Of a stretch of 64,000 nt of DNA, positions 3 to 60,778 are shown piece after piece. How positions within the stretch are numbered: position 1 is the stretch's first letter; each line of letters starts with the position of its first letter. Origin of the DNA: a virus. The notes under the pieces were generated by a model. That model was not told where the DNA came from, made no database searches, and saw nothing but the letters and a program-made list of their open reading frames with translations. The DNA lies in the IMG/VR virus record IMGVR_UViG_3300033148_002122, positions 32,001 to 96,000 of that record. One strand, written 5' to 3'. A program made the translations under genes and the position numbers.

Positions 3-584
3 CATGATAGCACAGGCAGTTATTCTTCTAGCCTAATAGCTAAATACGATTCTACGGGTTCGTATTCGTTAGTACTTGAAGGAGGAGATGACTCTACTGG
101 TTCGTATAGTGTTAGTCTAAAGACTACCACAGATAGTACAGGTTCGTTATCTGTATTATTAACATATACTTATGACTCTACAGGGTCCATATCAGTTTCA
201 ATACTAAAATCTCAGGATAGTACGGCTTCAGTTTCTGTAGTAATTGGTGGAACTATAGATAGTACAGCAAGTTACTCTGCCTTAGTATCTGGTGAAGTAT
301 TCAATGTTGATAGTACTGCCAGTTACTCAGTGGCGCTGTATCTAAAGACTGATTCTACCTATAGTTATAGTGTGTTCTTGTCTCCAGATAGACCTTTGGC
401 GTATGTATACTACGATGGGTTGTCTGCGTATGTAGTAAAAGATGCCCCAGGAAATTCGCAAATTATTGAAAAAAACTACCTTGCAAGCGTGTCCGTAGCT
501 AAGTTTGATGCGTATACTATACGAGGCATCTATAGTTCGGTTGTTGAAATAATAGATATACACAAGAGAGGCTGTGGTCAATAG
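3..584 (+). CDS. 5'-truncated virion protein with 14-aa DST repeats (extends the listed ORF 330..584 to the window edge)
   Basis: Frame 3 is open from nt 3 to TAG at 582-584 and reads HDSTGSYSSSLIAKY DSTGSYSLVLEGGD DSTGSYSVSLKTTT DSTGSLSVLLTYTY..., in the same frame as 330..584. Confidence 0.85.
   Translation, partial: HDSTGSYSSSLIAKYDSTGSYSLVLEGGDDSTGSYSVSLKTTTDSTGSLSVLLTYTYDSTGSISVSILKSQDSTASVSVVIGGTIDSTASYSALVSGEVFNVDSTASYSVALYLKTDSTYSYSVFLSPDRPLAYVYYDGLSAYVVKDAPGNSQIIEKNYLASVSVAKFDAYTIRGIYSSVVEIIDIHKRGCGQ
6..392 (+). repeat. Nine tandem 14-aa protein repeats, consensus DST(G/A)SYSxxL
   Basis: Asp codons at 6, 48, 90, 132, 174, 216, 258, 309 and 351 (42-nt period, one 51-nt unit); synonymous codons differ between copies. 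Confidence 0.9.
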
Positions 585-934
585 TGGGCTATCGTACTTC
601 TAAAATAAGAGAAATTACTGATATATATCAGCATACTACTCCTCTCTTCAGATTTACTATAAATCATGATGGTACTAGTGTTGTGTTGGGTAATCTAATG
701 ACAGTGAGATTTATTGGGAAGCCACATATTGATTCAAATCATACGTTATGGGACGCCTCTTGTGCCATAGTTGACTCTACGAGGGGAATGTGTGAATGCC
801 GCCTGTCATTAACTGATACCACAGATTCTTATCACAATATGTACGGAGAGCTAAGGTTTGAAGACCACACAATACAAACAAGTGAAGTAGTTAATCAGTA
901 TAAATTTGACCTTCTAGAGTCTCTTGGTGGCTAG
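584..934 (+). CDS. BppU N-terminal-like Ig-fold virion protein
   Basis: Pattern YQHTTPLFRFTI...TVRFIGK...IVDSTRGMCECRLSLTDT...YGELRF resembles the baseplate upper protein N-domain; GTG start overlaps the upstream stop. Confidence 0.55.
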   Translation: MGYRTSKIREITDIYQHTTPLFRFTINHDGTSVVLGNLMTVRFIGKPHIDSNHTLWDASCAIVDSTRGMCECRLSLTDTTDSYHNMYGELRFEDHTIQTSEVVNQYKFDLLESLGG

Positions 935-1467
935 TGAAAAGTAGATACAAAGATCTGACTGGATGTAAGTTTGATAGATTAACAGTTCTCAAGTACGTAG
1001 GTAGAACTAAAGGTAGACATTCATTATGGCTCTGTAGATGCTCATGTGGTAATAGGGTCAAAATGCTTGATAATAATTTAAAGAGTGGGTCCACTAAATC
1101 ATGTGGGTGTCTCCGTTCAGAATTGGTTTCTGAAAGGCTTAAAGGCGAAAATAATCATAAGTGGGATCCAAATAGAACAGATGAAGAAAGAGAAATTGGT
1201 AGAAATTATCCTGATTATTACCAATTTCGTAAAAAAGTGTATGAAAAAGACAATTATACTTGTGTAGCTTGTGGCTATTCAAGCGGCGGTAATTTAGTAG
1301 CTCATCATTTAGAAAGCTACTCACGAAATCATAATTTAAGAACAAAGCCAAGCAATGGCGTTTGTCTTTGTTCGCCGTGTCACAAGTTCTTTCATGTAGA
1401 ATACGGATTTGGAAATAATACTACTGAACAGTTTCAGGAGTGGATAAGGAGGATAATGGATGAATAG
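934..1467 (+). CDS. HNH homing endonuclease
   Basis: N-terminal DLTGCKFDRLTV...WLCRCSCG...KSCGC domain plus CVACG...AHHL...NGVCLCSPCHKFFH HNH motif. Confidence 0.9.
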   Translation: MKSRYKDLTGCKFDRLTVLKYVGRTKGRHSLWLCRCSCGNRVKMLDNNLKSGSTKSCGCLRSELVSERLKGENNHKWDPNRTDEEREIGRNYPDYYQFRKKVYEKDNYTCVACGYSSGGNLVAHHLESYSRNHNLRTKPSNGVCLCSPCHKFFHVEYGFGNNTTEQFQEWIRRIMDE

Positions 1468-2521
1468 GAAAAAGGTTTTACACGTTGTAAACTGGATAGG
1501 ACTAAGGGGTTCGGAAAAGACTTGTTTAAATTTTGCAAAACATACTCCGCAGTATGATCATACGTTTATTGCCAGGACTATCACTAACGCTGAAGCCGAA
1601 AAAGAGTTTATAGGTGTTGGTGAAGTTAGAATAAGTATAAATTTTGGAACAGGTGGAATGTTTGATTATTCTGATATAACACCAGAGTTTATAAAAGAAA
1701 ATAACATTGATATAATTAATGTATACTTACCTGGGGATAACCTACCAAGCTACATAAAAGGATTGAAAGACTGTGGTGTAAAGATTGTTCTAAGTGTATT
1801 GTGTGCCAAGAAATGTCATTTTGGTCCAGAACATTTTGACTCTGTTGTGGTTCTTTCTGAATTTGCAGCATCGTTAAACCCACATTTAAATCCAGAGTGG
1901 GTATATCCAACAGTTGAAGTGCTTGAGTCACAGGCAACAAAAGATGACATACTACTTAGATACTTTGATTTCTATGAATTAGCCAAGAACCCAATACTAA
2001 TATCTAGGGTTGGGTCAATCGAGCAGGTTAAACATGTTGAAGATTTCTTAAAGTTAGCTAAAACTTTTGAATATCTTGACAACGTATATTTTTTGTACGC
2101 AGGTGTAGCTGAGACTAGTTACCTAAATAAACTAAAATCAAAGTATTACGGAATTAATATAGCATATGGTGGTGTATTAACAGAACAGGAAAAGAACGAT
2201 ATCAATGCTGTTAGTGATGTATGTTTGTATCCTACTGAGTTTGAGTCGTTTGGCTATTCACTAGCAGAACCTATGTCGCACGGTGTACCAGTTGTTACCT
2301 ACAATGAATCCGCTTCACCAGAAACAGTTGGTGACGGCGGTGTTGTTGTTGATTTTAATAATTTAGTTCAGTTGACTAAAGCTTTGGCAGAATTAATGTC
2401 TAGACCACTATTACGTAAGAAACTTGGGGATAAGGCTTTAGCAAGGTGGGAAACTAGTTTTGCGCCTGGAATTTATCAAGATAAAGTTGTTGCTATTTAC
2501 GAGGGGTTATTAAATGAGTAA
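1460..2521 (+). CDS. Glycosyltransferase, GT4 family (GT-B fold)
   Basis: KVLHVV...GSEK N-terminus, GSIEQVKHV, DVCLYPTEFESFGYSLAEPMSHGVPVV (E-x7-E motif), ETVGDGG; no TM segment. Confidence 0.9.
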   Translation: MNRKKVLHVVNWIGLRGSEKTCLNFAKHTPQYDHTFIARTITNAEAEKEFIGVGEVRISINFGTGGMFDYSDITPEFIKENNIDIINVYLPGDNLPSYIKGLKDCGVKIVLSVLCAKKCHFGPEHFDSVVVLSEFAASLNPHLNPEWVYPTVEVLESQATKDDILLRYFDFYELAKNPILISRVGSIEQVKHVEDFLKLAKTFEYLDNVYFLYAGVAETSYLNKLKSKYYGINIAYGGVLTEQEKNDINAVSDVCLYPTEFESFGYSLAEPMSHGVPVVTYNESASPETVGDGGVVVDFNNLVQLTKALAELMSRPLLRKKLGDKALARWETSFAPGIYQDKVVAIYEGLLNE

Positions 2522-4868
2522 TCTTTACACAGATAGGGTAGTAAGAAACATTACCCCATTAGATAACCTGGAGAAGTATGAGGCTTTATCTGATAGTCAG
2601 CGTAGTGACAGATACCTACAGCTTTTAGATCATCAGCTATCTAAAGCAACGTATTTGTCTAATAAAGTTAAAAAACCTAATACGTTTATAACAGATCAAC
2701 TTGCGGATATGGCAGATATTGCTGGATCATTGTATTCTACAGAGAGCCATGAAACTAAACAAAAAGAACTTTTATTATCAAGAAATATAGCAAGATTTGA
2801 ACCTTTCTGTGCCACGGCACTCAAAAGACTTGTATCATTTAGTGTTACACCAGGAACATTCGAAAGTGTGTATGATGAAGAACTTGAACAAGTTCTACGC
2901 TTTTGGTATGAAAATCTTACTGCAATGGATGCTGCTCCTGGGTTTGTAAAACAGATACCAGGGTTAAAGATTTTTGAAGAATCATTTGTTAGGGAGTTAC
3001 TAGTTGATGGTGACTTAGTTATTTCTGAAAGCTGGTCAAAGGTTTCTGTTCCTATATACAGGGTTACTCCAAAAGGTAAAAGAACTGTAAAATTTAAGAA
3101 TTTTTTGTTACCTACTCGTCTAGCCATTCATGATTTTAGTAGTTTAAAAGTAAAAGAAGTATCCTCTCTATATAACAGAGAGATTATTACTATGAAGGTT
3201 CCAGAAGATCTAAAAGAATTAGCTGGAAAATCTGAGTTAACTCATGATGAGAAACAAACACTAGATCAGCTACCTGATTATATAAAGAAACAGCTAAAGG
3301 GTGAAGGAAGTTCTGAGTATATTTCTCTTGTTGATCCCAAGGGAAAAGAATCGTTTGTAACACACATAAAATTACACGGAAACAGTTATGCTCTGTATGG
3401 TAAGAGCTTTTTTGCTTCAGCCTTTGAGCCTATATCTAGAAAGTATAGACTTAGAGAATTAGACGAAGCAACTATAACTGGTATTATAAATAGAGTTACG
3501 ATAATTAAGGCCGGATTAGTTTCTCTAGAAGGTCAAACAACCATAACTCCTAATCGTTTACAAATGCTTGAACAACTTCTGAGTGAGCCTAAAGTTAATG
3601 AATTAATTCTTTGGCCTGGAGATGACATATCTATAGAGGATATAGGACCACAGGGAAAAATTCTTGAATTTGATAAAAGATATGACCATGTTAACAGTGA
3701 TATCCTTGCAGCTATTGGTGTTCCAAGAGTTCTTATTGACGGAAAGTCTGAGATGTCTGGAGAACGGACTGTCTATGCGTCTTTCCTTGGACTTAAAGAG
3801 TTTTTGGAACAGGATATTCGAAATGATAGACTCATACCTTTTGTTGAGTCATTAGCTAGAGGCATAGCAACTAAGAATAATTTTAAGGCAGAGTATCCTA
3901 AGTATCAAAAAGGAAGGATTAACCTTCAAGATCCAGAGATGCTACTCAACAGAGCTAAGTTTGAGTATGATCGTGGTCTTATGTCAGAGCGTACAGCGAT
4001 TACTGATGGGGGTAGAACCTGGGAAATTGAGAGACAAAGAAGAGAATTTGAGTCTATTAATGGTATTGTCCATAACTTTGGTATTCCAGATCTAGCATTT
4101 AACGAACCTTCTGACAGGGGAGATAGTGGACCAAAGGAAGATACTGAGAAGATATCTGATCCTGATGAAGTAAGTGACACTGGTTCGAATGCTGCCTTTG
4201 CTGCGTCTACAAGGGACGCTAATTATGCAGAGGATCTTGATGATATATATCAGTCAAATACCTCAAAGATTTTAACTAGAATGGAAAATTCTGGCATTCC
4301 TAACTCTACAATTATTGGATCGTTAATTGTTATGTTTGGTCTTTTAAAGAAATCAAGCAGAGAGTATGTTAATGAATCATATAACAAGTTATTAGAAGAT
4401 GCCAATTACTATGATGTCGAACTATTAGATAATGTTATATCCTGGTCTGATCAACAATTTGATAACTGGTTAGACTCAATGACTGAGACTATAACTAGTA
4501 AAATAACTGATGAGTTGGACACAGATGACAAAGTTATACTACTTGCTGGTATATTTTCTGCTGCTATTAACACAAGGCTTTATAAATACGAAACTGCTAT
4601 ACCATCAAAGGTTGAACGAGCAGTTAGTATTTCAGCTAGTAAAGCTGGTGGAAATGAGTACGCTACATGGATTTCAGCATTAACTGAAAATACTTGTGCG
4701 TATTGCACCAGTCTTCATGGAAAGAGCATGTCAATTGATGCCGCGCTAGAGATGTATCCAGTACATCCTAGCTGTCAGTGTGACTACCTAGAACACAAGA
4801 CACTCCCTAAAAATGCAGATACTGATATACCAGAGAAAGATTCAGATAACTGGAGTAACCTAAAGTAG
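2514..4868 (+). CDS. Portal protein fused to a C-terminal MuF/SPP1 gp7-like minor head domain
   Basis: RELLVDGD, YGKSFF and ILAAIGVPRVL are portal-like; C-terminal WISALTENTCAYCTSLHGK...PVHPSCQC is the MuF signature; position upstream of protease and capsid genes. Confidence 0.75.
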   Translation: MSNLYTDRVVRNITPLDNLEKYEALSDSQRSDRYLQLLDHQLSKATYLSNKVKKPNTFITDQLADMADIAGSLYSTESHETKQKELLLSRNIARFEPFCATALKRLVSFSVTPGTFESVYDEELEQVLRFWYENLTAMDAAPGFVKQIPGLKIFEESFVRELLVDGDLVISESWSKVSVPIYRVTPKGKRTVKFKNFLLPTRLAIHDFSSLKVKEVSSLYNREIITMKVPEDLKELAGKSELTHDEKQTLDQLPDYIKKQLKGEGSSEYISLVDPKGKESFVTHIKLHGNSYALYGKSFFASAFEPISRKYRLRELDEATITGIINRVTIIKAGLVSLEGQTTITPNRLQMLEQLLSEPKVNELILWPGDDISIEDIGPQGKILEFDKRYDHVNSDILAAIGVPRVLIDGKSEMSGERTVYASFLGLKEFLEQDIRNDRLIPFVESLARGIATKNNFKAEYPKYQKGRINLQDPEMLLNRAKFEYDRGLMSERTAITDGGRTWEIERQRREFESINGIVHNFGIPDLAFNEPSDRGDSGPKEDTEKISDPDEVSDTGSNAAFAASTRDANYAEDLDDIYQSNTSKILTRMENSGIPNSTIIGSLIVMFGLLKKSSREYVNESYNKLLEDANYYDVELLDNVISWSDQQFDNWLDSMTETITSKITDELDTDDKVILLAGIFSAAINTRLYKYETAIPSKVERAVSISASKAGGNEYATWISALTENTCAYCTSLHGKSMSIDAALEMYPVHPSCQCDYLEHKTLPKNADTDIPEKDSDNWSNLK

Positions 4869-5536: not shown

Positions 5537-7246
5537 ATGGGTAATTCCAAAAGCTACAAAACAAAATTTGTTGATGAGACTGTAGCAGAACTTCTAAAGT
5601 TTAGTGCTAGCAGTGATCCTGAATCTTTACGTCCAGAAGCTGTTAATATCTTTAATCAAGCTCATACTTTTTCTAATAAAAGAGGGTATTCTATAAAAGA
5701 TACTATTTTTGCGTCAAGTATACCTAATGCAGTAAAAATGCATCTTATTAAAAAGGGACTACAAAAGAGTCAGGAAATGCCATCTCTTGAAAGTATCTAC
5801 GGATTAAATAATATGACGAAGATAATGAGTAGTGTTAGCATAGCTGCAATAGAGATGAAGGATTTAGACTTATCTAACGATGAGATTCCTGAAGATCTAA
5901 AACAGTCTAATGCTTTTATGCACATGTTTAACAAACGTGATGACTTAATTTTACTAGATTTAATTCTTGTTGTTGAGGGAGTTAATTCTAATATGGACGA
6001 GTTTTCTGCTGCGGAATTGGCGGCTAACCATAGTACAATAGTTGGTATGCCACTAACACATGAACACATGCATGATGAAATACATGGAGTGTTTTATGAT
6101 TCTGAGTTAATTGATCTAGAAGTAATTGATCCAATCTCAGAACAGAAAAGTATTAAGAAAGCAGTACGAACTAAAGCAATTTTTTATAAACATCGTTTTC
6201 CAGATGAGGCCGATGTTATAATTGGTAGAGCTACACTTGGCACTCTTAGGTTCAGCATGGAGTGTTATTTTGAAAAAGCCAAATGTTCAGTGTGTGGCGA
6301 AGAGGCAACAAGTATTTGGGATTATTGTGACCACATGTGGGAACGCTTTGATCCAGATTCTAATGCTTCAAGAATTTTAATTGGCATTAAGTTTGTTGGA
6401 GGTTCTTACGTAAGAAATCCAGCAGAGAAAAATGCTGTTCTATTAGACTTTGAGGACTATAGTGATGAAAGTTTATTAGCAGCCGCTTCTGAAAATAATG
6501 TAAAGATCATGCACTATTCTAAAGATGGACAGCATATCACTTGGGCAGATGATTATATTAATGACAATGAATCTTCTGGTTTTGATAACAGAGAAGGAGA
6601 TGAATTTATGGACCGTGATACTTTGCTAAAGAATCCAGAAGTCAAAGCTATGATTGAAGATCTTGCTAAAGCTAAAGCAGAAGAAATGCTAGCTGACATG
6701 GAGCAGAGTTCAGAGAAGGAGTCCCTACAGCGTGAGGTTGATGAGCTTAGTGAGGCGAACGAAGGTTTAGCTTCAAAAGTCTTAGAGCTTGAAACCAAAA
6801 TTTCTGAAAGGGATGCTCTTGATCGTGCTAATGCTTATGTCAATGATCTAGAAAAATCTGGTGTTGACTTGGGTTCTGATAGTGATCGTGAGAAGCTATT
6901 AGCTCTCTTCCTTAAATCCTCAGATGAGGATGCTAAAACATTGGCAGAATTCTTAAACAAGAATAGTAAAGCTGATGAAGAAGAGAGTTCTGAAGAGGAC
7001 GAATCTGTTGAAGATGAGTCTGGAGCTTCTGATGAAACAGACGAAACAGATGAGTCTGAAGACGAAGAAAATGATGCTTCCGATGATGAGGATGAAGCTG
7101 CTGAAGCTAGTGGGGAACTTCCTGTTAAGGGAGGCCCAGCTTCAAGAGAAAAGGCTATTGCCACAGCTAATCGTAATCTAAGAGGTGTAGCAATAACTGG
7201 TCTTTCAGCACTAACCGACCTTTTTGAGACAAATAAAGAGGATTAA
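5537..7246 (+). CDS. Prohead protease with C-terminal scaffold domain
   Basis: NSNMDEF, GMPLTHEH, RFSMEC and GGSYVRNPA motifs of HK97/herpes-fold proteases; CSVC...CDH insert; coiled-coil plus acidic C-terminal half; position between portal and capsid genes. Confidence 0.75.
   Translation: MGNSKSYKTKFVDETVAELLKFSASSDPESLRPEAVNIFNQAHTFSNKRGYSIKDTIFASSIPNAVKMHLIKKGLQKSQEMPSLESIYGLNNMTKIMSSVSIAAIEMKDLDLSNDEIPEDLKQSNAFMHMFNKRDDLILLDLILVVEGVNSNMDEFSAAELAANHSTIVGMPLTHEHMHDEIHGVFYDSELIDLEVIDPISEQKSIKKAVRTKAIFYKHRFPDEADVIIGRATLGTLRFSMECYFEKAKCSVCGEEATSIWDYCDHMWERFDPDSNASRILIGIKFVGGSYVRNPAEKNAVLLDFEDYSDESLLAAASENNVKIMHYSKDGQHITWADDYINDNESSGFDNREGDEFMDRDTLLKNPEVKAMIEDLAKAKAEEMLADMEQSSEKESLQREVDELSEANEGLASKVLELETKISERDALDRANAYVNDLEKSGVDLGSDSDREKLLALFLKSSDEDAKTLAEFLNKNSKADEEESSEEDESVEDESGASDETDETDESEDEENDASDDEDEAAEASGELPVKGGPASREKAIATANRNLRGVAITGLSALTDLFETNKED
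6608..7246 (+). CDS. Probable nested in-frame scaffold protein
   Basis: AAGGAG at 6594-6599, then ATG at 6608 in the protease frame (MDRDTLL...), exactly where the coiled coil begins. Confidence 0.6.
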   Translation: MDRDTLLKNPEVKAMIEDLAKAKAEEMLADMEQSSEKESLQREVDELSEANEGLASKVLELETKISERDALDRANAYVNDLEKSGVDLGSDSDREKLLALFLKSSDEDAKTLAEFLNKNSKADEEESSEEDESVEDESGASDETDETDESEDEENDASDDEDEAAEASGELPVKGGPASREKAIATANRNLRGVAITGLSALTDLFETNKED

Positions 7247-7265: not shown

Positions 7266-7832
7266 ATGAAAATTAGTTTTCTAAATGTTCCTGAGTGGGC
7301 ACATCTTGGAGAATATCGTTGCAATGGTGTGGTATGGCAGGGTCAGGTTGGTTTATTTGCTGACTCTACCACATTAGAGCTAGGATCTACTGATGCTACT
7401 TGGCATCTGTATGAAATGCGTAAGTTTGTAAAGGCTATTGATAGTACTGCTTACTTGGTTGCTGACTCTACTGGTGTTGTTGAATTCTTCATCATGTATA
7501 AGTGGCCGAATGAAGATGAGTATGAGTCTGCCGAACACGCTTATGGTCAAAAGATTCTAACGAGTACTCCAATTGTATGTGTTCCGTTGACTCCTGGCTT
7601 CCGTATTGAAGACTACGATACCCAGGATAACACATCTGGTCTTGACTCTGGTGTAACTTGGTCAACCGTAGCCAGGAGTGCCCCACTATATCTTAATGGT
7701 GATGGCCGCTGGACTACTGTATATGTTGAGTATTATACATCATTTGCAAGAGCCGTGTTTGAGCAGTATAAGAATGGTTATGTAACTTACCGTATTATTG
7801 AGCCTAGTAATATTTTAAGGGCAACAGTATAA
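7266..7832 (+). CDS. Probable head decoration protein
   Basis: Beta-rich 188-aa ORF between scaffold and major capsid genes; AAAGGAG RBS; three DST motifs. Confidence 0.55.
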   Translation: MKISFLNVPEWAHLGEYRCNGVVWQGQVGLFADSTTLELGSTDATWHLYEMRKFVKAIDSTAYLVADSTGVVEFFIMYKWPNEDEYESAEHAYGQKILTSTPIVCVPLTPGFRIEDYDTQDNTSGLDSGVTWSTVARSAPLYLNGDGRWTTVYVEYYTSFARAVFEQYKNGYVTYRIIEPSNILRATV

Positions 7833-7850: not shown

Positions 7851-8852
7851 ATGTCCACGTTGATACGTAATGGTAGTGGGGTATCTAAGCACAAGGATGA
7901 CGAACGACTACAGAAGTGGTTGGTCAGTCTTGCTGATAACTGGAAAGACCCCTCAATTAATGGTGAATTCCATGCACTTGCAAAGGAAATCACTCGACAG
8001 GTAATGGAAGAGTTTAGTTTTGTAGACCTGACTCCCCATATTCTTGAGTCATCTAACCTTGATCGTGATGTCCACAAGATTGTATTCAAAGAACTGGGTG
8101 GGTATACTGCAACTACAGTATCATCCGGTGGTCGTAGACAGCAGTTTAGGCTAGACAAGAGCCGTTCTGTAATCTGGATTCCAGATGAGTACGAGAATGC
8201 TACTGTGGAAGTTCTTGAAGATGATTTGCGCGAAGGTAACTATGGTACTATTGCTGATATTCGTGAGGGAATCCGTGATGCACTAGCTCATAAAAAGCTA
8301 GCCCGTGTTATGGAAGAACTGCACCGTATTTGTAACTATAGTGAAGACCAAGCTAACTGGGATGGCACTGATAGTGCCGCCGCTGGTAATAGTAACTTTA
8401 TTTACCAACCAGGAAGCACTATTCATCCTCACGCACTAAACTATGCGCTAAGAAAAGTTATCGGACGTACTGGTAGGGTTGTGTCTATTGTTGGGCACCC
8501 AGACTATGTACTTCAGATTGCTGACTTTGCTGGCTTCTTGGCTAATGAGGCAACTCCTGGTCAGAAAGAGCAGTTGCAGCAACGTGGTTGGATCGGTAAG
8601 TACCGTGGAGCCAATGTTATTGCAGTGAGTGAGTATGAGGACAAGAAGTATGGTAATCAAGTTTGGGATCCATACAACATCTACATCGTAGGTGCGGGTA
8701 TGGCCGAAATTGCTAATATTTATGGCGTAGAGGCTGTAACTGATTTTGAGGCAATGCGTTCCGTTCGTCTAATTGGTGGCGATCAGAAGTACGTTGTACT
8801 ATCTCAGGATCCTCAGTTGAAGCGTGGTTTCCGTATTCAAATGGATGCGTAA
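7851..8852 (+). CDS. Major capsid protein (HK97 fold)
   Basis: Synteny, 333 aa, AGGAGG RBS, GWIGKYRGANVIAV matches the typical G.l.G..v P-domain strand; followed by a GC hairpin. Confidence 0.8.
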   Translation: MSTLIRNGSGVSKHKDDERLQKWLVSLADNWKDPSINGEFHALAKEITRQVMEEFSFVDLTPHILESSNLDRDVHKIVFKELGGYTATTVSSGGRRQQFRLDKSRSVIWIPDEYENATVEVLEDDLREGNYGTIADIREGIRDALAHKKLARVMEELHRICNYSEDQANWDGTDSAAAGNSNFIYQPGSTIHPHALNYALRKVIGRTGRVVSIVGHPDYVLQIADFAGFLANEATPGQKEQLQQRGWIGKYRGANVIAVSEYEDKKYGNQVWDPYNIYIVGAGMAEIANIYGVEAVTDFEAMRSVRLIGGDQKYVVLSQDPQLKRGFRIQMDA

Positions 8853-44804: not shown

Positions 44805-45446
44805 ATGAAAATTTCTGTGTTACTGCCTATGCGTGATTCAGATAGTGATTCTGTGGATGGGCTAAGGACTTTGATAGAGAATAGAACAGGCGATAATGAA
44901 CTTGAGATACTGTTTGGTGTAGATAGAGATGATGACTCATGGAAACAGGTTACGGCTATGCTGGATGAGGAGTTTCCTGAAATTGAGTACGTTGTATGCG
45001 TTACCAAGCAATTTGGATACACTAGCCTGTATGAGTACATGAACCGATTGGCAGCGTTGTCAACAGGTGATTGGCTTATGATGTGGAATAATGATGTCTA
45101 CATGATAGGAAAAACATGGGACTTAGGTATAAATAAAGACTTATTTAAGTTGTATTACCTACAGTCTGATAATCAGTGTGAATTTCCTGTGTTTCCGAGA
45201 AAATGGTTTGAACTTACAGGAAGAATCTCTTTGTCTAGGCATTGTGATTCGTGGATGTTATACATAGGAAGAGAAATTCTTACAAAGGAGGGTGCCGTGC
45301 TATCTGAGTTACCAAACTCTAGGGTTAATCACCTGAAAAAAGTAAAACAAGTGTATGATAATAAACATTTTAAGGACTTAGCCAGTGAGAGAAATATTGA
45401 TAAGAACAGGATTGTGGACTACTTAAAAAGTGAGGGACTAATATGA
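44805..45446 (+). CDS. Glycosyltransferase, GT2-like (GT-A fold)
   Basis: MKISVLLPMR, EILFGVDRDD, NRLAALSTGDWLMMWNND (DxD-equivalent). Confidence 0.85.
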   Translation: MKISVLLPMRDSDSDSVDGLRTLIENRTGDNELEILFGVDRDDDSWKQVTAMLDEEFPEIEYVVCVTKQFGYTSLYEYMNRLAALSTGDWLMMWNNDVYMIGKTWDLGINKDLFKLYYLQSDNQCEFPVFPRKWFELTGRISLSRHCDSWMLYIGREILTKEGAVLSELPNSRVNHLKKVKQVYDNKHFKDLASERNIDKNRIVDYLKSEGLI

Positions 45447-46693: not shown

Positions 46694-46694
46694 A

Positions 46695-50335: not shown

Positions 50336-50820
50336 TATTCCTCCTCTATTGAAACCGTGGCATTACATTTGGTCTGGTGTACATAGTGCCTTACGCTCAT
50401 GCCTTGGGCCTCAACCTTTGGCATTCTTCTCAGCAGGGATACCAATACTGATATTTCACCCTCAATTCTTCTGGAATCAAATGGTTTTGCCTCACGCACA
50501 CACCTGACTCCACCTCTGGGACCAACCCTAATGATTCCCCAAAACTCTGGAACCTCACTGTCCTTAAACGCAGACTCTGGACCAAAGTAATATCTATACA
50601 TACCCATTCCAAGCCCAGGCCATTCTCTGAAAGGTTTTTTAGAATCTGATAGAAAGTCAGATCGGTTTGCCTTGCACTCAACTATAGCAGATATTCCCCA
50701 CGGGGAGAACCCTATTGCGTCTGGTTGTTCAAACGCTGACGTAACAATCTCAGTCGCTACGACTGGGTATTTTTTCTTGAGGAATATCGCTGCCTTTTCT
50801 ACTAGTTCATCGTGTGTCAT
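50335..50820 (-). CDS. PD-(D/E)XK nuclease-like protein (MmcB-like)
   Basis: EQPDAIGF...VECKANRSDFLSD...GMGMYRYY. Confidence 0.75.
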   Translation of the reverse strand: MTHDELVEKAAIFLKKKYPVVATEIVTSAFEQPDAIGFSPWGISAIVECKANRSDFLSDSKKPFREWPGLGMGMYRYYFGPESAFKDSEVPEFWGIIRVGPRGGVRCVREAKPFDSRRIEGEISVLVSLLRRMPKVEAQGMSVRHYVHQTKCNATVSIEEE

Positions 50821-51647
50821 CAGAAAGTATCGTCATCATGGGTATCCTCTAGGGCATCCATCATTAACTGCTGGTCCTTAAGTGTATAGCACACCTTTTT
50901 AAGATCACAGTATCCACATTCCCAATTATCATAGGGAAGTACTGGAGGAAGCATTTCTTTCCAGTCATCGTCTTCTGCCTCAAGAGCGGGTTTAACGGCT
51001 TTGATATATCTTTCAATTTCTTGTTCAACCTCTGCCATATCCATTAGCTTGGCCTTGCCAATCTTCCAGCCGTCCATACTCAGGTAGAATATCTTTATGT
51101 TCTGGATGTCAATAACAGTGTCTCCAACTTTCTTACCCTTGGTAAGCCAGCGATAGATATTACCCTGAACCTTGTGCTTAATGTATGCGTACTGGAATGC
51201 CGGGAGCTTTCCAACAGACTTGTAGTCGTATAGTGTCTGAGTATTTAGGTCTATGAAATCAAATCTTCCTGTAATTTTTACTCCAGCAAATTCTTTTTCA
51301 AATCTGATCTCAGCCGTTTCGTTCTTTGTGCTGTCTACATACTTCTCAAACATATCGTGGAACATAGTTCCTCTAATGGCAGGAATGGTACTGATTGGGT
51401 CGGCTCCCCATTCATACTTTTGTTCAAGCACTGTTTTTCTAGGGCAACTACCAACCTTGGAGGCTGAGTATGGACTACGTTCTTTGCTATCCCGCCATGT
51501 CTGGTGGATTAATCTTATCAATGGTGCAGTAAGTTGACACGGATTTTCTCCAGTCTCTACGCACTCAAGACATTTCTCCATTGTCATAACCTCAAAAGAA
51601 CCCTTTCCTCTAGGTCTGCTACTACAATGTATTTTAGTTACTGGCAT
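50820..51647 (-). CDS. Cas4/RecB-like PD-(D/E)XK exonuclease
   Basis: SCPRK, RGTMFH, ITGRFD...LYDYKS, QGNIY and C-terminal CGYC...C (Fe-S cysteines). Confidence 0.85.
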   Translation of the reverse strand: MPVTKIHCSSRPRGKGSFEVMTMEKCLECVETGENPCQLTAPLIRLIHQTWRDSKERSPYSASKVGSCPRKTVLEQKYEWGADPISTIPAIRGTMFHDMFEKYVDSTKNETAEIRFEKEFAGVKITGRFDFIDLNTQTLYDYKSVGKLPAFQYAYIKHKVQGNIYRWLTKGKKVGDTVIDIQNIKIFYLSMDGWKIGKAKLMDMAEVEQEIERYIKAVKPALEAEDDDWKEMLPPVLPYDNWECGYCDLKKVCYTLKDQQLMMDALEDTHDDDTF

Positions 51648-52557: not shown

Positions 52558-52746
52558 TTATAGACTGATTCGTGTGTTCCAGGCTTTTGGATATTCTTTT
52601 CCAGATACCCCTGTTTTTTCTAGCCAAACAATAAGCCCTTGTGCTGGGCACTGACCGTCTCCGTATGGATGTTCCATAAAGTTGAACCCTAGAGATTTTT
52701 CAAGTTCTAACCCACAGAATGGACACGGCTTTAGCTTCTCGTTCAT
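52558..52746 (-). CDS. Lar-family restriction alleviation-like protein (start revised)
   Basis: MNEKLKPCPFCG...AWNTR signature; ATGA overlap with the upstream stop. Confidence 0.7.
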   Translation of the reverse strand: MNEKLKPCPFCGLELEKSLGFNFMEHPYGDGQCPAQGLIVWLEKTGVSGKEYPKAWNTRISL

Positions 52747-53258
52747 GGGGCATCCTTTAAAAAGGCACGGGTGCGGCAGTGCCAGCACACCCTCGACGGA
52801 CAGTCGGCAGGGTCGGTACATTCGCAGTACTCATCAACGGCCTCCTCCTCCAACAACTCCATCGCCCTGTCCAGCTTGGCGCTGAAGTAGCTGGCCTTCT
52901 CGCGGAGAGTTTCGGTGATGTTGTGCGTCTCGGACATAAGGCTGTCGTACCTGTTGTGCCAGAGGTGTGCCGTCTCTTGTGCGGTGTCCAGCTTGGACTG
53001 GAGGGTGATGATCTCTCGCCGGAGCGGCTTGGTTGCTTTTATTCGCTGTAGCCTCTCCACCTCTGCCTGGAGGGTGTCACGCTCCTTGGCATACTCATCG
53101 TTGTAGTCATCTATCATCCCGTAGAGGCTACCCACTTCAGCCTGGAGGGCTTCGAGCATGGCGGCGGCGGCGTAGCCGGAAGCAAAATGTCCCTTATCAT
53201 CGGAAGTTCTGCATTTTGTCGCCATCTCCTGCACCTCATCAGGTGGGTAGTGCTTCAT
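52743..53258 (-). CDS. Coiled-coil protein with C-terminal Cys cluster (start revised to MKHYPP); paralog of 54552..55004
   Basis: GGAGGAG RBS and ATGA overlap at 53255-53258; shares YPPDEVQ, AAAMLEALQAEV and LREKASYFSAKLDRAME blocks. Confidence 0.7.
   Translation of the reverse strand: MKHYPPDEVQEMATKCRTSDDKGHFASGYAAAAMLEALQAEVGSLYGMIDDYNDEYAKERDTLQAEVERLQRIKATKPLRREIITLQSKLDTAQETAHLWHNRYDSLMSETHNITETLREKASYFSAKLDRAMELLEEEAVDEYCECTDPADCPSRVCWHCRTRAFLKDAP
52864..52908. repeat. 45-bp exact direct repeat, copy 1 (copy 2 at 54691-54735)
   Basis: gccctgtccagcttggcgctgaagtagctggccttctcgcggaga at both sites. Confidence 0.9.
53132..53168. repeat. 37-bp exact direct repeat, copy 1 (copy 2 at 54857-54893)
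   Basis: ccacttcagcctggagggcttcgagcatggcggcggc at both sites; a third 23-bp block at 53228-53250 and 54974-54996 has one mismatch. Confidence 0.9.
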
Positions 53259-53440
53259 GGCTTCTCCTCCTCTGCCCTGTCTTTTCTGGCAAGCATCCCG
53301 CGCACTCGCCGCCATGTTATTGTGAAGTGCCTACTATCTCCATGAGGACCGGCGTAGATTTCTATGCCTTTTGTGTCTTCGTAATACCAACAGTCATGGC
53401 ATGGATCATATGGGCTCCGCTTCAGGTGCTTATTGCTCAT
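53255..53440 (-). CDS. Hypothetical protein
   Basis: 61 aa, coupled to the next gene. Confidence 0.55.
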   Translation of the reverse strand: MSNKHLKRSPYDPCHDCWYYEDTKGIEIYAGPHGDSRHFTITWRRVRGMLARKDRAEEEKP

Positions 53441-53468
53441 GCTCTCTCCGCTGGTAACTCATATCCCA

Positions 53469-54153: not shown

Positions 54154-54565
54154 CTCTCTCCTCCTCTGTGGGCTGGCAGGCAGGGCAGGGAACTTGTCTC
54201 TTGATATCTCCAAGGCGAGGCGGTTCGCCAGGTAAATGGATGACATGGTACTCGGGGACGACCTTGCTTCCCCCGCACTCGCTGCATGGCTGGCAGGCGG
54301 GGCAGGCAGCCATGAGCCCAGTGAATGGTTCGCGGTGCTGCTTAGCACCGTTGCACAGGCTACACGGCTCCCCGTCTTTGGTGTCGATCTTCTCAAGGAT
54401 CGCTTGCTTGAGGTACACGCAAAGGTCCAAGGCTTCCTCGTAGGCGTCCTGAAGGGCGTCTCTGCCGTTGTGCGTGGTCAAGGGCTCCCCGTACTCGGTG
54501 GCACCTTTGGCAATACGAGCAGCGAGGTCAGCTTGCACTAACGGCAGCACTTCAATCCTTTCCAT
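54146..54565 (-). CDS. MazG-like all-alpha NTP pyrophosphohydrolase-like domain fused to a zinc finger
   Basis: KGATEYGEPL..HNGRDALQDAYEEALDLCVYL followed by CSLCNG, CPAC, CSECGG, CPAC. Confidence 0.55.
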   Translation of the reverse strand: MERIEVLPLVQADLAARIAKGATEYGEPLTTHNGRDALQDAYEEALDLCVYLKQAILEKIDTKDGEPCSLCNGAKQHREPFTGLMAACPACQPCSECGGSKVVPEYHVIHLPGEPPRLGDIKRQVPCPACQPTEEERDA

Positions 54566-55004
54566 TTCTACCCTCCTTGGCGTCAGGCGCTTCGCTGTCG
54601 AGGCGGGAGAGGGCAGCGTTCAGATTAAACCAGAACAAACTATTCCCTGGTGCTGAACTCAGCGTTATCGCCGCCTCCACCACCTCCATAGCCCTGTCCA
54701 GCTTGGCGCTGAAGTAGCTGGCCTTCTCGCGGAGAATCTGTTCCTGTTCGCAGTGTGTGGCGTTTTCTTCGCCCAGCTTGGCCTGGAGGGTGTCAGCATG
54801 GCGCGTGATGGCGTCGCATTCATCTCGGCGCTCCCTGAACTTCCCGCTCAGCCTCTCCACTTCAGCCTGGAGGGCTTCGAGCATGGCGGCGGCAGCGACC
54901 AGTCCCTCGCAAGTAGCCTCGTCGAACATGGGCTGTAATTCTATCGCCAGTGCGCGGAGTGCCCTTGTGGTTACCTGCACCTCATCAGGCGGGTAGCTAG
55001 GCAT
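54552..55004 (-). CDS. Coiled-coil protein; paralog of 52743..53258
   Basis: Same conserved blocks with different spacers and C-terminus; TAATG coupling at 55004. Confidence 0.7.
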   Translation of the reverse strand: MPSYPPDEVQVTTRALRALAIELQPMFDEATCEGLVAAAAMLEALQAEVERLSGKFRERRDECDAITRHADTLQAKLGEENATHCEQEQILREKASYFSAKLDRAMEVVEAAITLSSAPGNSLFWFNLNAALSRLDSEAPDAKEGRNGKD

Positions 55005-56803: not shown

Positions 56804-57056
56804 ATTTTATTATTCCGTAGGTTGAATACCTAGGAAATTCTTTAAATGGTTGTGACTCCCATACTTGGTTCATAGTACAAAATATACGCTTAAGGAATAT
56901 TAGGGCATCTTCTACGCTATGAAATATATCTGTGTTGTACGTTCCGTTATTGCCTCTAAATTCAGCTACCCATTTATTATCTTTTTCATGTGGTTTTTCC
57001 CATATAATGTAGGTATCTCCATCAGGAAATACTTTTATCCATGCCCCAAGTTTCAC
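56763..57056 (-). CDS. Hypothetical protein
   Basis: 97 aa, GTGA overlap with the heptose kinase stop. Confidence 0.55.
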   Translation of the reverse strand: MKLGAWIKVFPDGDTYIIWEKPHEKDNKWVAEFRGNNGTYNTDIFHSVEDALIFLKRIFCTMNQVWESQPFKEFPRYSTYGIIKCEERFAHAELLAK

Positions 57057-58006
57057 AGCTTCTCCATTACTTCATCTAGTTCTACTGGATTAACTCCAAA
57101 TTTAGTTACTGAGATCTCAGCTATTTTTTGTACAAGACCAAGTTTACTCTCTCTGTCTTCCTGTGGTTCATACGGAGTAAGTAACAGGGCAGCAGCGGCA
57201 GTCACTGTGTCACCAGCACCACACGCATCCTGTACGTGAACCTTATCGGCTGGTATGGTTGCTAGATAGTTGAAGTGCTTGTCAATATACCACATACCTT
57301 TATCACCTAGTGTAACAAGTGTATTACACGTAGCTTCTTTATACATCTGTATGTATGCTTCCCACTCATAAGTATTAGGTGTGTACACTACTTCAAGATT
57401 GTCACTTCCTGCCTCTAGCCTATACCTCTGTTTTGAATCAATTATAAAAAACATCTTTTTTCTTGTGCTATGTTTTGATAGCAATCTATACAACGAGTTA
57501 ATAAAATCTTGATTTGTCCCAGACTTACCATAGTCTGATAGGATTACCGAATCTGGTCTATTCTGATCCAGGTAGTAGTCTATCTTATACATAATATTCA
57601 TTACTTCAGCCTGAGTCATCTCGCCATACTTGTGTTCTTCATCTAGTCGGCAAACGTGGTGTCCGTTGCACACTATTCTTGTTTTTACTGGGGGTCTAAC
57701 GTCATGCACATTTATAGCTACAAAAGGAAAATCAAATATAGACGTTGTATGCCCAGTCAACGAACACATGACAGGCTTACCACCAAGTGCATGGATTGTC
57801 TTTGCTACGTTGGTGGCACCGCCATCGGCTTCCCACTTTTTTATAGTACCTCCAATTACAGGCACTGGTGCCTCTGGGGATAACTTTGACTCCGTGCCTT
57901 CAATGTATTTGTCAATGATGTGATCACCAATTACAAGTATATTCTTATTACTTGAATCACTGAGATACTTACTGGTTTTCTCGTAGCCTTCCTTACTAAA
58001 ACTCAA
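57053..58006 (-). CDS. RfaE/HldE-type heptose-7-phosphate kinase domain (PfkB family)
   Basis: ILVIGDHIIDKY...SPEAPVPV, GGATNVA, KTRI..RLDEE, ILSDYGK, TPN, VTLGDKGM, DACGAGDTVTA. Confidence 0.88.
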   Translation of the reverse strand: MSFSKEGYEKTSKYLSDSSNKNILVIGDHIIDKYIEGTESKLSPEAPVPVIGGTIKKWEADGGATNVAKTIHALGGKPVMCSLTGHTTSIFDFPFVAINVHDVRPPVKTRIVCNGHHVCRLDEEHKYGEMTQAEVMNIMYKIDYYLDQNRPDSVILSDYGKSGTNQDFINSLYRLLSKHSTRKKMFFIIDSKQRYRLEAGSDNLEVVYTPNTYEWEAYIQMYKEATCNTLVTLGDKGMWYIDKHFNYLATIPADKVHVQDACGAGDTVTAAAALLLTPYEPQEDRESKLGLVQKIAEISVTKFGVNPVELDEVMEKL

Positions 58007-59249
58007 AATATTTCTCCCTCTCTCTGAATAGCTTATCCCTGTCCTGCCAAGTTTCTGTACCCCATTGTTCTTCTATTTTAGCTATTGAGTCCATAACTTC
58101 TTGCAATGAAATAGAATCCATCATTCTACAGACTTTTAATTCTGAATCACCACAGTGTGACTGTGTTGGCAGAATATTGTTTGGTCCTGACTGAGTATGT
58201 TGTAGGCACCCATTAGGGAATGGCTCACACGTTCCTGGGTGTTCTAGCGTTATGTTTCTGGGATAGTACTTGGTCCTAATCTTACCTGGGAATGGCCCAT
58301 ACAGACTAACACTAGGAGTGAAGGTAGCGGCTGCAACATGAACTATTGCTGAATCAATTGTTACAACAAACTTTGCCTTAGCTACTAGAGCAGATGCGTA
58401 CAAGAATCTCATCTGTTTCTGTCTAGCCTCTGACCACATTTCAGTCACAGACCTAACTTTTGGGTGAACCTTACGTCCAACCTTGTCTTCAAAGTTGATA
58501 ATCGCTGACTCAATCTCTGGGTGGTAGAATCCGTTGCCAAGGAATAACGTATAGATGTCATACTTTTCTGAGATGGCATCAGCTAGCTCAATCATTCTAA
58601 TGTAATCCCAATCCCTAACAATAGACGATGATTTAAATTGAATACAGGCGTACTCCATAGGCTTTAAACCTATATTCATTCCTTTATTAACAACGTTTCT
58701 TGCTGTTTTAAAATATTCCATAGCCCCTGGATAATACGGAAGTCGTTCCAGTCCTACCAAGTCAATGCCTGCCAGTTGAGAAAATCTGTCAACAGCAGGA
58801 AGCTGATCTGGATCTGTATCGGCCTCAATTGTTCCCTCAAACTTAAGGTGATAATCATGTGACATGATCGTATTCATACTAAGGGGTAAAACCATTGGGC
58901 TAGTTAGCCTACCAATATCTTCGTTGTCTTTCCATATGTCATGAAATCTTTCTGACGTAGCAACATTTATTGTAGCCTGTGGGTACTTCTGCTTAAGTTT
59001 ATGTACTAGGCTACTAACAAATAGTAAGTCACCAAATCCACCAGTTCTCCAGACTATTAGTTTCTTTCCATTTAAGTCCTCACCCTTGTAGGGCTTATAA
59101 TAGTCATCAAATTTATCAAACCTTGTTATAGCAGCACGGTTAGAATCACTAATCATTTTAGCCAAAGCGTCTGCGATTACATACGGGACACCCCGGCGCA
59201 TACGGATTTCACCGTAGTGTGCGTCACGATTTAGCTCTAAAATTATCAT
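57996..59249 (-). CDS. GT9 family heptosyltransferase-like protein (start revised to MIILEL)
   Basis: WRTGGFGDLL, LKQKYPQATI, VVTIDSAIVHVAAA...VSLYGP, four C-terminal Cys; AAGGAG RBS. Confidence 0.85.
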   Translation of the reverse strand: MIILELNRDAHYGEIRMRRGVPYVIADALAKMISDSNRAAITRFDKFDDYYKPYKGEDLNGKKLIVWRTGGFGDLLFVSSLVHKLKQKYPQATINVATSERFHDIWKDNEDIGRLTSPMVLPLSMNTIMSHDYHLKFEGTIEADTDPDQLPAVDRFSQLAGIDLVGLERLPYYPGAMEYFKTARNVVNKGMNIGLKPMEYACIQFKSSSIVRDWDYIRMIELADAISEKYDIYTLFLGNGFYHPEIESAIINFEDKVGRKVHPKVRSVTEMWSEARQKQMRFLYASALVAKAKFVVTIDSAIVHVAAATFTPSVSLYGPFPGKIRTKYYPRNITLEHPGTCEPFPNGCLQHTQSGPNNILPTQSHCGDSELKVCRMMDSISLQEVMDSIAKIEEQWGTETWQDRDKLFREREKYFEF

Positions 59250-59364
59250 TAAAAAACTCCTTAATCCGTTCCCAAACACAATAACCTAGTGTTCCCATAC
59301 CAGCTACAACACTAGCATCTGCACACAAGTCTGAATTTAAAATATAGTATAGTATGTCATGCAT
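59224..59364 (-). CDS. Possible 46-aa small membrane-associated protein (not in the ORF track)
   Basis: ATG 2 nt after the upstream stop; MHDILYYILNSDLCADASVVAGMGTLGYCVWERIKEFFNDNFRAKS fills the gap. Confidence 0.45.
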   Translation of the reverse strand: MHDILYYILNSDLCADASVVAGMGTLGYCVWERIKEFFNDNFRAKS

Positions 59365-59366
59365 AT

Positions 59367-59870
59367 CTACTCCAGATGGTCTTTAAATATTATAGATACT
59401 TCTTTTTCTTGTACTCCGTGTATAAGCGCAGCCTGTCTGTCATTCATTCTCAAGTCGATATGAAGTTCTGCCGATCTACGCATAGATATTCCTGTGTCAT
59501 CCGCTTCATACGGAGAGCCATCAATAATAACTATGGATCCATACGGTATTCTGTTAGGGTCTACCGCTACTCCAGGTAGTGTAGCATCCTTGCCCGTTGC
59601 TGTCAAGCCATCATCAAAGGGATAGCAGCTAATACTGTCAGGTGTGTACGCAGTGATCAGGGCGTTTACCTTGGCTACAGGGTTAATAATTAGGGTATCA
59701 ATACCACACGCCTTTAGTGAATCAACAGCATTTTCTAACACATTTAATTCTGTTTCTATGTTATTAAACTGTGTTCTATATTTATTGTCTGTCATAGTTT
59801 TTCCCATACCAATTCCAGCCAAGAACCAAGCACACGAAATTAAAACAATTTTTGTCATAGACATTACCAC
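59367..59870 (-). CDS. 3D-domain (MltA-like) peptidoglycan hydrolase with N-terminal signal/TM
   Basis: ITAYT, TATG, VAVDPNRIPYGS, ADDTG, HIDL, GVQ motifs. Confidence 0.85.
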   Translation of the reverse strand: MVMSMTKIVLISCAWFLAGIGMGKTMTDNKYRTQFNNIETELNVLENAVDSLKACGIDTLIINPVAKVNALITAYTPDSISCYPFDDGLTATGKDATLPGVAVDPNRIPYGSIVIIDGSPYEADDTGISMRRSAELHIDLRMNDRQAALIHGVQEKEVSIIFKDHLE

Positions 59871-60778
59871 ACCCCGGCATCTTTAAGCATCTTTTTTACC
59901 ACGGCAGAACAAGTATACAGTTCGTGTATTTCTTTATAACCCTGCATAACAATGTCTTCCCATTGCTTTGCAGTAATGTCTGCAATCTTATCCTCAATCA
60001 TTTTGTGATCGCCATTGAATGTAATACAGTTTTCGCCATCCCGCCACATACTAATAAAATGTAGGGGAGCATCGTCAGCTACCTCAATTATAGGCACAGA
60101 CCTACCAAGTATTTCATAGTGTCGTTGGCAATCCCAACCAGCACCCTTCGGTGATAGTACGTACTGAGAGTTACTTAGGGCACCAAAATAATCTATTCTA
60201 TTACTATACTTTTTCACTGGATAATGTCTCGCCAGTTCCGATCTGTTAACACCGTGTTCAATTGTGAATGACGAATGAATACGATTTTCTCTCGCATCAC
60301 GATTAACAGTATTCGCTCCTCCTGGCATCAGTGGAATTAGATGATCAGGAAGTCCAAAAGTAATTGGATAAACGTGTGGGATCTTTTCTCTGGGAACCAC
60401 AGGTGTAAGTTCTCTCTTAAACATAGGCGGGGCACCGTAGTGCAGCGCAAGAACATCATCGTCCTCACCATCCACATAGATATCTGCATTCTTTCTAATA
60501 CGTCTGCAACTTAGGTTAACAACTAGATCAAAGTTTTCTGGCAGCATATTCTGTGACCTATCTATAGGATCCGTAATAAAGTATCTGGCATTCATTGCAT
60601 ACTCAGGTCTTGGATGAACCTGACCATCAAAGTCCTGATACAGTATAGCTTTTCGTGGATAATCAACTGCTTGTTCATTAAACAGAATTCTAAATCCATA
60701 GAGTAGATCATCCTGTAGATAATCTTGACCACCAGAAGTAAGTAGTAATATTTTAGATTTATCTGTCAACTTTTTCAT
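59864..60778 (-). CDS. Glycosyltransferase, GT-B fold, exostosin/GT47-like C-terminus
   Basis: DYLQDDLLYG, YVDGED, FKRE, YFGALSNSQYVLSPKGAGWDCQRHYE. Confidence 0.7.
   Translation of the reverse strand: MKKLTDKSKILLLTSGGQDYLQDDLLYGFRILFNEQAVDYPRKAILYQDFDGQVHPRPEYAMNARYFITDPIDRSQNMLPENFDLVVNLSCRRIRKNADIYVDGEDDDVLALHYGAPPMFKRELTPVVPREKIPHVYPITFGLPDHLIPLMPGGANTVNRDARENRIHSSFTIEHGVNRSELARHYPVKKYSNRIDYFGALSNSQYVLSPKGAGWDCQRHYEILGRSVPIIEVADDAPLHFISMWRDGENCITFNGDHKMIEDKIADITAKQWEDIVMQGYKEIHELYTCSAVVKKMLKDAGVW

Follow-up and report, generated by a model that had tools for sequence, protein, structure and literature searches.

In mycobacteriophages (Che8, Corndog and Myrna), the capsid and tail tube are glycosylated by glycosyltransferases that the phages themselves encode (PMC12363180, citing Freeman 2023), and this virion glycosylation shields the particles from antibodies (PMC12363180). 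In Bacteroidota, a general O-glycosylation system recognizes the sequon D-(S/T)-(A/I/L/V/M/T), places its glycan on the second residue and requires export of the substrate to the periplasm, and in Tannerella forsythia the third place is widened to S, C, G or F (PMC8550257). The excerpts of this literature that were available contain no sequence rule for where a phage places sugars and no defined phage sequon; for the mycobacteriophage type, they describe no tripeptide sequon. Here we describe a 64,000-nucleotide stretch of viral DNA (the window), which comprises bases 32001-96000 of the 116,752-bp IMG/VR record IMGVR_UViG_3300033148_002122 (G+C 39%). Predicted virion proteins of this phage carry the tripeptide D-S-T, and less often D-T-T, far more frequently than their composition predicts. 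The tag proved to be a genuine, strict and conserved feature of a single lineage, and we rate the chance that it is an O-glycosylation sequon, read by a cytoplasmic glycosyltransferase of the phage, as about even.

As proposed, the system would resemble the mycobacteriophage type in that soluble phage glycosyltransferases would decorate virion proteins, among them the tail tube, before assembly in the cytoplasm or in the course of it, and the phage likewise encodes glycosyltransferases that score above Pfam cut-offs (family GT4, GT9-like and GT4-like). It differs in that the mycobacteriophage capsid is glycosylated, whereas the capsid-like protein here has no site and the tag, judged from sequence alone, lies on fibres, tail and head-accessory proteins. 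The phage tripeptide and the Bacteroidota sequon both consist of three residues with Asp first, the (presumptive) acceptor Ser or Thr second and Thr allowed third. However, the third place can be A, I, L, V, M or T in Bacteroidota and only Thr is enriched here, and Bacteroidota substrates are exported with a signal peptide, whereas neither the tagged proteins nor the enzymes of the phage have a leader-like or transmembrane-like segment. The resemblance to Bacteroidota appears to be one of logic only, not of membership. A further likeness is to staphylococcal SdgA and SdgB, which have a GT4 fold, are cytoplasmic and O-glycosylate Ser beside Asp in the long tandem Ser-Asp repeats of adhesins; a 1426-aa protein of the phage that is built of DST repeats is similar to such substrates. 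Phage virion glycosylation itself was already known. If the sequon reading is true, this would be the first protein-glycosylation sequon to be defined for a bacterial virus; metagenomic sequence could then be used to predict which virion surfaces are glycosylated, and the tag would provide a portable cytoplasmic glyco-tag for engineering. With a strict tag of three residues, two small proteins and two enzymes would suffice to test the rule, and a tag that proved structural instead would still be an unusually sharp, lineage-specific signature in need of explanation.

A strict tripeptide is in excess in predicted virion proteins

For each of the 46 open reading frames (ORFs) of the window, the expected number of D[ST]T tripeptides was derived from 500 shuffles that preserve composition. 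The ORFs hold 67 D[ST]T against 14.0 expected, which indicates that the excess survives correction for composition. DST accounts for 51 of them (7.8 expected; Poisson 8e-25), which ranks it first among all 8000 tripeptides, and DTT for 16 (6.5 expected). Across the whole record DST is again the top tripeptide, with 123 occurrences against 14.3 expected. Many of these belong to a giant protein of 1426 amino acids (aa) that ends within the window and consists of approximately 62 tandem 14-aa units of the form DST[G/A]SYSxxLxxxx plus a 170-aa insert; it contains 66 DST, 9 of which lie inside the window. When this repeat protein is excluded, the 12 proteins with at least two sites (8132 aa) still hold 51 DST (4.7 expected) and 19 DTT (4.3 expected). 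An earlier note on this window had counted both tripeptides ORF by ORF, and every count was reproduced exactly; one DST that it overlooked lies in the PD-(D/E)XK nuclease at 50820..51647. Six ORFs reached the floor of the shuffle test (p=0.002; Table 1), and the ORFs of the 116-aa and 464-aa proteins gave p values of 0.012-0.014. The portal, protease/scaffold-like, capsid-like and tape-measure genes encode no D[ST]T at all.

The excess arises at the level of protein. At the 57 DST sites that lie outside the 1426-aa protein, Ser is encoded 33 times by TCN and 24 times by AGY, a division close to overall Ser usage; the earlier note had likewise reported both codon families. Furthermore, the DNA pattern GAY-(TCN|AGY)-ACN occurs 57 times in frame, whereas the two remaining sense frames hold it 2 and 3 times and the three antisense frames 3, 13 and 4 times, a distribution that rules out a DNA-level motif. 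Shared domains were ruled out as a source by an all-against-all BLAST of the tagged proteins, which returned one shared domain at 23% identity and a few marginal matches. The tag therefore recurs, as first proposed, over proteins with almost no detectable paralogy.

Closely related tripeptides showed no comparable increase. In the same 12 proteins, DSS (6 observed, 5.5 expected), DSD (4/4.5), DSN (6/3.3), DSG (4/4.8), NST (1/3.4), DGT (6/4.0) and DPT (2/2.1) are all at expectation, as are DGS and DAT, and D-x-T in the window with x other than Ser or Thr occurs 64 times against approximately 77 expected. The motif is thus strictly D-[S>T]-T, with the third place enriched only for Thr and the second for Ser and then Thr. 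Such strict specificity argues for a reader of the tag. The earlier note had connected the motif with the Bacteroidota sequon. The counts do not support this connection, because the remaining variants of that sequon are also at expectation: DSA 4/3.3, DSV 4/4.0, DSL 3/3.9, DSI 2/3.8, DSM 1/0.8, DTA 1/2.9, DTV 4/3.4, DTL 2/3.3 and DTI 5/3.3, alongside DST at 51/4.7. Together with the lack of leader-like segments in the tagged proteins, these values led us to reject the tag as an instance of the Bacteroidota general sequon.

The tag is conserved and confined to one lineage

A portal profile identified seven related IMG/VR loci, of which five were read as whole records (G001-G005, with G000 denoting the phage described here); these records are fragments with a completeness of 17-71%. 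The closest relative, G001, is a 59-kb fragment with a portal identity of 47%, and DST is again its top tripeptide (58 observed, 8.7 expected). G002-G005, with portal identities of 32-33%, showed no DST excess (7/9.3, 5/3.3, 12/7.5 and 6/4.4, respectively). G004 and G005 do have a mild excess of DTT (16 vs 6.8 and 10 vs 4.3), and each carries two genes of glycosyltransferase family GT2. A degenerate DNA pattern for two units of the 14-aa repeat matched G001 only.

Across 15 ortholog pairs between G000 and G001, D[ST]T is kept at 29 of 66 sites. When Ser and Thr are treated as equivalent, 30 of the 66 sites are kept (45%), compared with 1028 of 10387 for all tripeptides (9.9%) and 5 of 39 for D[ST][AILVM] (13%). 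Conservation at the three positions of the sites is 0.70, 0.63 and 0.64 against a background of 0.41, 0.41 and 0.31 for equal residue types at other places, and that of the flanks is 0.26-0.34. DST and DTT are swapped at seven aligned sites, and sites have been gained and lost, such that the 1698-aa tail protein has one site in G000 and nine in G001. Judged from these alignments, purifying selection acts on the tripeptide.

Two proteins were compared in larger families. The 188-aa protein, whose gene separates the protease/scaffold-like gene from the capsid-like one, has nine clade members; its three DST are retained by 7/7, 6/7 and 7/7 of those closest to it (query included), while adjacent residues vary; the outgroup has DFT, DVT, DTT or DGT at these columns. 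This protein showed no fold or family in searches of PHROGs, Pfam, PDB profiles or the Atlas. For the 464-aa protein, a homolog of 68% identity keeps two of four sites and has gained one at a D-G-T, and the other homologs, 136 sequences from a library of 1.8 billion proteins, have no excess (60 D[ST]T observed, 77.7 expected). The 464-aa protein itself matched no PHROG, Pfam or PDB profile, and 3 of 40 of its homologs matched PHROG 985, a virion structural protein. An insertion of approximately 30 residues in it is flanked by a DTT and a DST (aa 180-215; window 12460-12570) and is absent from G002 and G004.

A candidate GT4 enzyme is inherited together with the tag

The earlier note had listed five glycosyltransferases in the window. 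Three stood up to profile searches, namely the GT4 enzyme at 1460..2521, a GT4-like enzyme with a marginal score and a GT9-like enzyme (38.4 bits, above the Pfam cut-off). The other two did not: the 213-aa ORF at 44805, described as GT2, matched only NCBIfam HpnI over its first 68 residues (23 bits) and no Pfam, PHROG or PDB entry, and the ORF at 59864, described as GT47-like, gave a sub-threshold match to RXYLT1_C (17 bits vs 27) and none in PDB or NCBIfam. The UDP-sugar dehydrogenase (Ugd) and the B12 radical SAM enzyme that had been proposed were borne out by profile matches, and the proposed heptose kinase is a kinase, of a PfkB type that resembles domain I of RfaE, the lipopolysaccharide (LPS)-heptose kinase domain. 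Outside the window, the record encodes a Gmd-like enzyme, an epimerase, two GT2 enzymes (one match at 71 bits) and a methyltransferase. No Ugd or epimerase was found in the available sequence of the five relatives.

GT4 enzymes, which are retaining glycosyltransferases, have an E-x7-E motif in the C-terminal domain. In the GT4 enzyme at 1460..2521, E262-x7-E270 is invariant in 11 clade members, and these 11 proteins, at 40% identity or above, form the entire family, with nothing else found down to E=1e-10. The best NCBIfam match is BshA (42 bits vs a cut-off of 274), and the best PDB matches are BshA and MshA-type enzymes. The resemblance to the SdgA and SdgB families (NF047881/NF047880; cut-off 800 bits) is generic, and with scores of 24.2 and 17.8 bits the enzyme was rejected as a member of them. 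In the N-terminal (acceptor) half of the clade, H8, H34, C115, K117 and C119 are invariant and H120 is present in most members; this set is atypical of GT4 profiles and could form a metal site.

The GT4 gene adjoins the portal gene in both G000 and G001 and lies beside a clade-specific block of tagged genes (190, 479, 1426 and 116 aa). In the window, an HNH endonuclease gene (934-1467) separates the GT4 gene from the tagged gene of 116 aa; G001 lacks it there. Among the five relatives, only G001 has an ortholog of the GT4 gene, which is missing from the same position in G002-G005, and only G001 has an ortholog of a GT2 gene at genome 11447..12289. Because G001 is also the one relative with a DST excess, the tag and these two genes are linked by lineage, which we count in favor of a sequon. 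In IMG/VR, a profile of the GT4 enzyme found only G001; among JGI metagenomes it matched 11 loci, three of which (L111, L112 and L113) are true orthologs and none of which contains structural genes. At L112, the GT4 ortholog overlaps a homolog of the genome-11447 GT2 gene by 4 nt, which suggests that the two act in one pathway. Directly 5' of the GT2 gene, in the early region upstream of the window and at a distance from the virion genes, a 135-aa protein (genome 11025-11432) has four DST (0.28 expected). A predicted complex of the GT4 enzyme (alignment A3) with the 188-aa protein (alignment A6) scored 0.01 and 0.00 against a mark of 0.32, which is evidence neither for nor against an interaction.

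Not every glycosyltransferase follows the tag. In three phage lineages, tagged or not, a GT9-like gene is the neighbor of primase (window 57996-61866; G002; G004), and it was rejected as the tag enzyme because its presence does not track the DST excess. The expectation that relatives without glycosyltransferases would lose DST enrichment therefore holds for the GT4 and genome-11447 GT2 genes, which track the excess, but not for GT9-like and other GT2 genes, which occur without it. The presence of GT9-like and GT2 genes in relatives that have no DST excess means that glycosyltransferases by themselves do not predict the tag.

These distributions bear on an explanation in which the proximity of the sugar genes to the tag is coincidental and their targets are DNA or the host envelope, by way of base hypermodification, alteration of LPS or capsule, or diversion of precursors. 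Such a role would suit the GT9-like gene, which lies beside primase, is conserved in relatives without a DST excess and resembles LPS heptosyltransferases; the kinase with its resemblance to the LPS-heptose kinase domain of RfaE; and the GT2 genes found where DST is not in excess. However, in both G000 and G001 the GT4 gene is located inside the virion block, adjacent to the proteins with the most tags; the enzymes, moreover, contain no membrane segment, and the tag itself would be left unexplained. We consider this explanation quite improbable.

In the reading that we favor, D-S-T and, less often, D-T-T would serve as a short linear tag on fibre, tail and head-accessory proteins of a phage clade, and a soluble phage glycosyltransferase would read the tag in the cytoplasm and O-glycosylate its central Ser or Thr. 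The best candidate for reading the tag is the portal-adjacent GT4 enzyme, which would act together with the GT2 enzyme at genome 11447. Donor sugars would be built or tailored by Ugd, the B12 radical SAM enzyme, a NadE-like enzyme, the Gmd-like enzyme, the epimerase, the methyltransferase and the PfkB kinase. The B12 radical SAM enzyme has HpnJ as its best match. HpnI and HpnJ are neighbors in hopanoid-sugar pathways, and the HpnI-/HpnJ-like pair, with Ugd located between its two members and the NadE-like gene after them (44805-48098), hints at an unusual tailored uronic sugar. In its fullest form, to which we would give slightly less than an even chance, this proposal describes an uncultured siphovirus-like clade with its own sequon system, comprising approximately 140 tags distributed over fibres, tail proteins, one head-proximal protein and the repeat fibre, a clade-specific GT4/GT2 reader and a phage-made, uronic-acid-containing glycan that is possibly methylated or amidated.

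Flanking residues, structural contexts and evidence against a sequon

The context of the tag was examined at 133 scattered sites in G000 and G001 combined. Positions -1, -2 and -4 are enriched in hydrophobic residues (74-75 vs 54), small residues are raised at +3, and Lys and Arg are avoided at -1 (0 vs 10) and +5 (1 vs 10). In Asx- and ST-turns, an Asp opens the turn and hydroxyl residues follow. The flanking context here, with a hydrophobic strand before the site and a small residue after it, is like that of such turns.

The fibre encoded at 20704..23775 provides a second context. Residues 449-602 form a heptad region with a 14-residue periodicity, in which hydrophobic residues occupy -1, +3, +6/7, +10 and +13 and the heptad places e, f and g are taken by the D, S/T and T of the tag. 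L-D-x-T persists in the G001 ortholog, but four of its six units carry Ala or Ile at f. From this comparison, the Asp and the final Thr may be structural in the fibre, with the hydroxyl at the most exposed position as the part specific to the clade or phage. A Ser or Thr at heptad f is not a turn context, which we count in favor of the sequon reading.

Several observations weigh against a sequon. The flanks fit a beta-turn, the DST[G/A] that never varies in the 14-aa repeat could have a solely structural role, and outgroups often have D-x-T (DNT, DVT, DFT or DGT) at the columns of the tag. The absence of the motif from interior proteins, which the earlier note had reported, holds as a count but is not significant alone (0 vs 2.5 over 12 head, neck and tape-measure ORFs, P=0.08), the two largest tail proteins (32976.. 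and 38072..) are at expectation (1/1.4 and 2/1.7), and the motif is not depleted in non-virion proteins (8 vs 7.8), where a promiscuous cytoplasmic enzyme might deplete it. With respect to the enzymes, orthologs of the GT9-like gene (34-35% identity) adjoin primase in G002 and G004, both of which lack the DST excess, as do G004 and G005 with two GT2 genes each. The link between glycosyltransferases and the tag rests on effectively one evolutionary event, with G000 and G001 on one side and three or four outgroup lineages on the other.

The main rival to a sequon is an unmodified structural motif, such as an Asx/ST-type beta-turn or strand cap, that the folds of the clade's fibre and tail proteins would favor. 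The flanks, the persistence of D-x-T both in outgroups and in the coiled coil of G001, and a repeat protein in which every 14-aa unit opens with DST[G/A] all speak for it. A preference for Asx- or ST-turns, however, would also raise DSD, DSN, DSS, NST and DGT and would not do so in one clade only, whereas none of these turn-prone tripeptides is enriched here, nor are DSG, DPT or D-x-T without the hydroxyl. Moreover, the tag also occurs at heptad position f, the tagged proteins are not paralogous, and no excess is seen either in the 136 homologs of the 464-aa protein or in the four records that share head and tail-tube orthologs. We therefore regard a purely structural role as unlikely, although it deserves the most attention among the alternatives.

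A tag may also be read by something other than a glycosyltransferase, in which case it would carry a phosphate, an acyl group or ADP-ribose, or would dock a partner protein or host ligand or bind an ion. That something reads the tag is shown by its strictness, its conservation and its restriction to one lineage, which do not tell what the reader is, and avoidance of Lys and Arg would suit many kinds of reader. Against this possibility, the scanned ORFs yielded no protein kinase and no other enzyme that modifies proteins, the genes inherited with the tag encode glycosyltransferases, and at least 11 genes of sugar pathways would have no assigned target. A different kind of reader thus seems improbable to us, less so than a role of the sugar genes on DNA or envelope. 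A phage-encoded glycosyltransferase that adds a sugar to the tag is the reading that we prefer over these alternatives.

The host is probably not a member of the Bacteroidota

A hydropathy scan (Kyte-Doolittle, 19 residues; a crude measure) found no transmembrane- or leader-like segment in the tagged proteins, save for an internal peak of 1.63 in the 2240-aa tail protein, and none in the sugar enzymes, as the earlier note had stated for the latter. Bacteroidota rarely use Shine-Dalgarno sites. In this phage, GGAG, GAGG or AGGA lies upstream of 73 of 119 ORFs (61%), compared with 11% of random 17-mers, and the Bacteroidota promoter TTTG-N17-21-TANNTTTG is not enriched (2 vs 1.5 expected). Because Shine-Dalgarno sites are strong and the promoter motif shows no excess, the host is probably not a member of the Bacteroidota. 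RecA was uninformative with respect to the host, as the best 80 of 595 relatives are approximately 57-63% identical and belong to Alphaproteobacteria, Lentisphaerota, Clostridia and others.

Gene layout of the window

The window contains a long rightward block of virion genes, followed by a leftward replication block with primase, ThyX, RecA and nucleases (Table 1). For most virion proteins, neither Pfam nor PHROG has a matching family, and for that reason the labels "decoration", "tail tube" and "spike" that were used for tagged proteins in the earlier note reflect position only, with gene order as their basis. A megablast of window positions 1-25000 against phage records returned no matches, a tblastn search with the capsid-like protein returned only matches of 24-26%, in Bacillus Basilisk-like phages, and a single-sequence scan of IMG/VR with the same protein found no relative. 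By these searches, the phage appears to be one without a close cultured relative.

Table 1. Tagged proteins, sugar enzymes and virion landmarks of the window. Coordinates are window positions unless marked as genome; DST/DTT, observed counts; p, shuffle test.
Feature	Coordinates	Strand	Size	DST/DTT	Remarks
Giant repeat protein, C-terminal part	3..584	+	final 193 aa of 1426 aa	9/0	whole gene at genome 28304..32584, start 3.7 kb upstream of window; p=0.002
116-aa protein	584..934	+	116 aa	1/1	DTT kept in G001 ortholog
GT4	1460..2521	+			Pfam Glycos_transf_1 (PF00534), 61.6 bits vs cut-off 26.4; directly 5' of portal
Portal	2514..4868			0/0	weak profile match
Protease/scaffold-like	5537..7246			0/0	weak profile match
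188-aa protein	7266..7832	+	188 aa	3/0	between protease/scaffold-like and capsid-like genes; p=0.002
Capsid-like	7851..8852			0/0	weak profile match
464-aa protein	11926..13320	+	464 aa	2/2	just 5' of chaperone pair and tape measure; tail-tube-like by position
Overlapping chaperone pair	3' of 11926..13320				assigned by size and order
Tape measure	14423..20692		2089 aa	0/0	assigned by size and order
Seven tail genes	up to 44794				assigned by size and order
Fibre	20704..23775	+	1023 aa	12/5	p=0.002
197-aa protein	23785..24378	+	197 aa	5/1	0.32 expected; 4 of 6 sites kept in G001; p=0.002
Tail protein	24396..27296	+	966 aa	7/4	0.83 expected; p=0.002
Tail protein	27300..32435	+	1711 aa	8/2	1.36 expected; p=0.002
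Tail gene	32435..32965	+	176 aa	1/0	at expectation
Tail gene	32976..38072	+	1698 aa	1/0	at expectation; 9 sites in G001 ortholog
Tail gene	38072..44794	+	2240 aa	1/1	at expectation
Sugar-tailoring genes, late strand	44805..48873	+			213-aa protein, Ugd, B12 radical SAM enzyme, NadE-like PP-loop enzyme
GT4-like, marginal	48866..49765	-			Glycos_transf_1, 28 bits vs cut-off 26.4
PfkB/RfaE-domain-I-like kinase and GT9-like glycosyltransferase	57053..59279	-			GT9-like gene at 57996..59279

Within the 39% G+C genome, a 2.4-kb island at 52600-55000 has a G+C content of 54-62% and contains ambiguous ORFs on both strands. The island matched no Rfam family, and the two of its ORFs that were tested (52743..53315 and 54552..55004) matched no Pfam family; it may be foreign DNA that was acquired recently.

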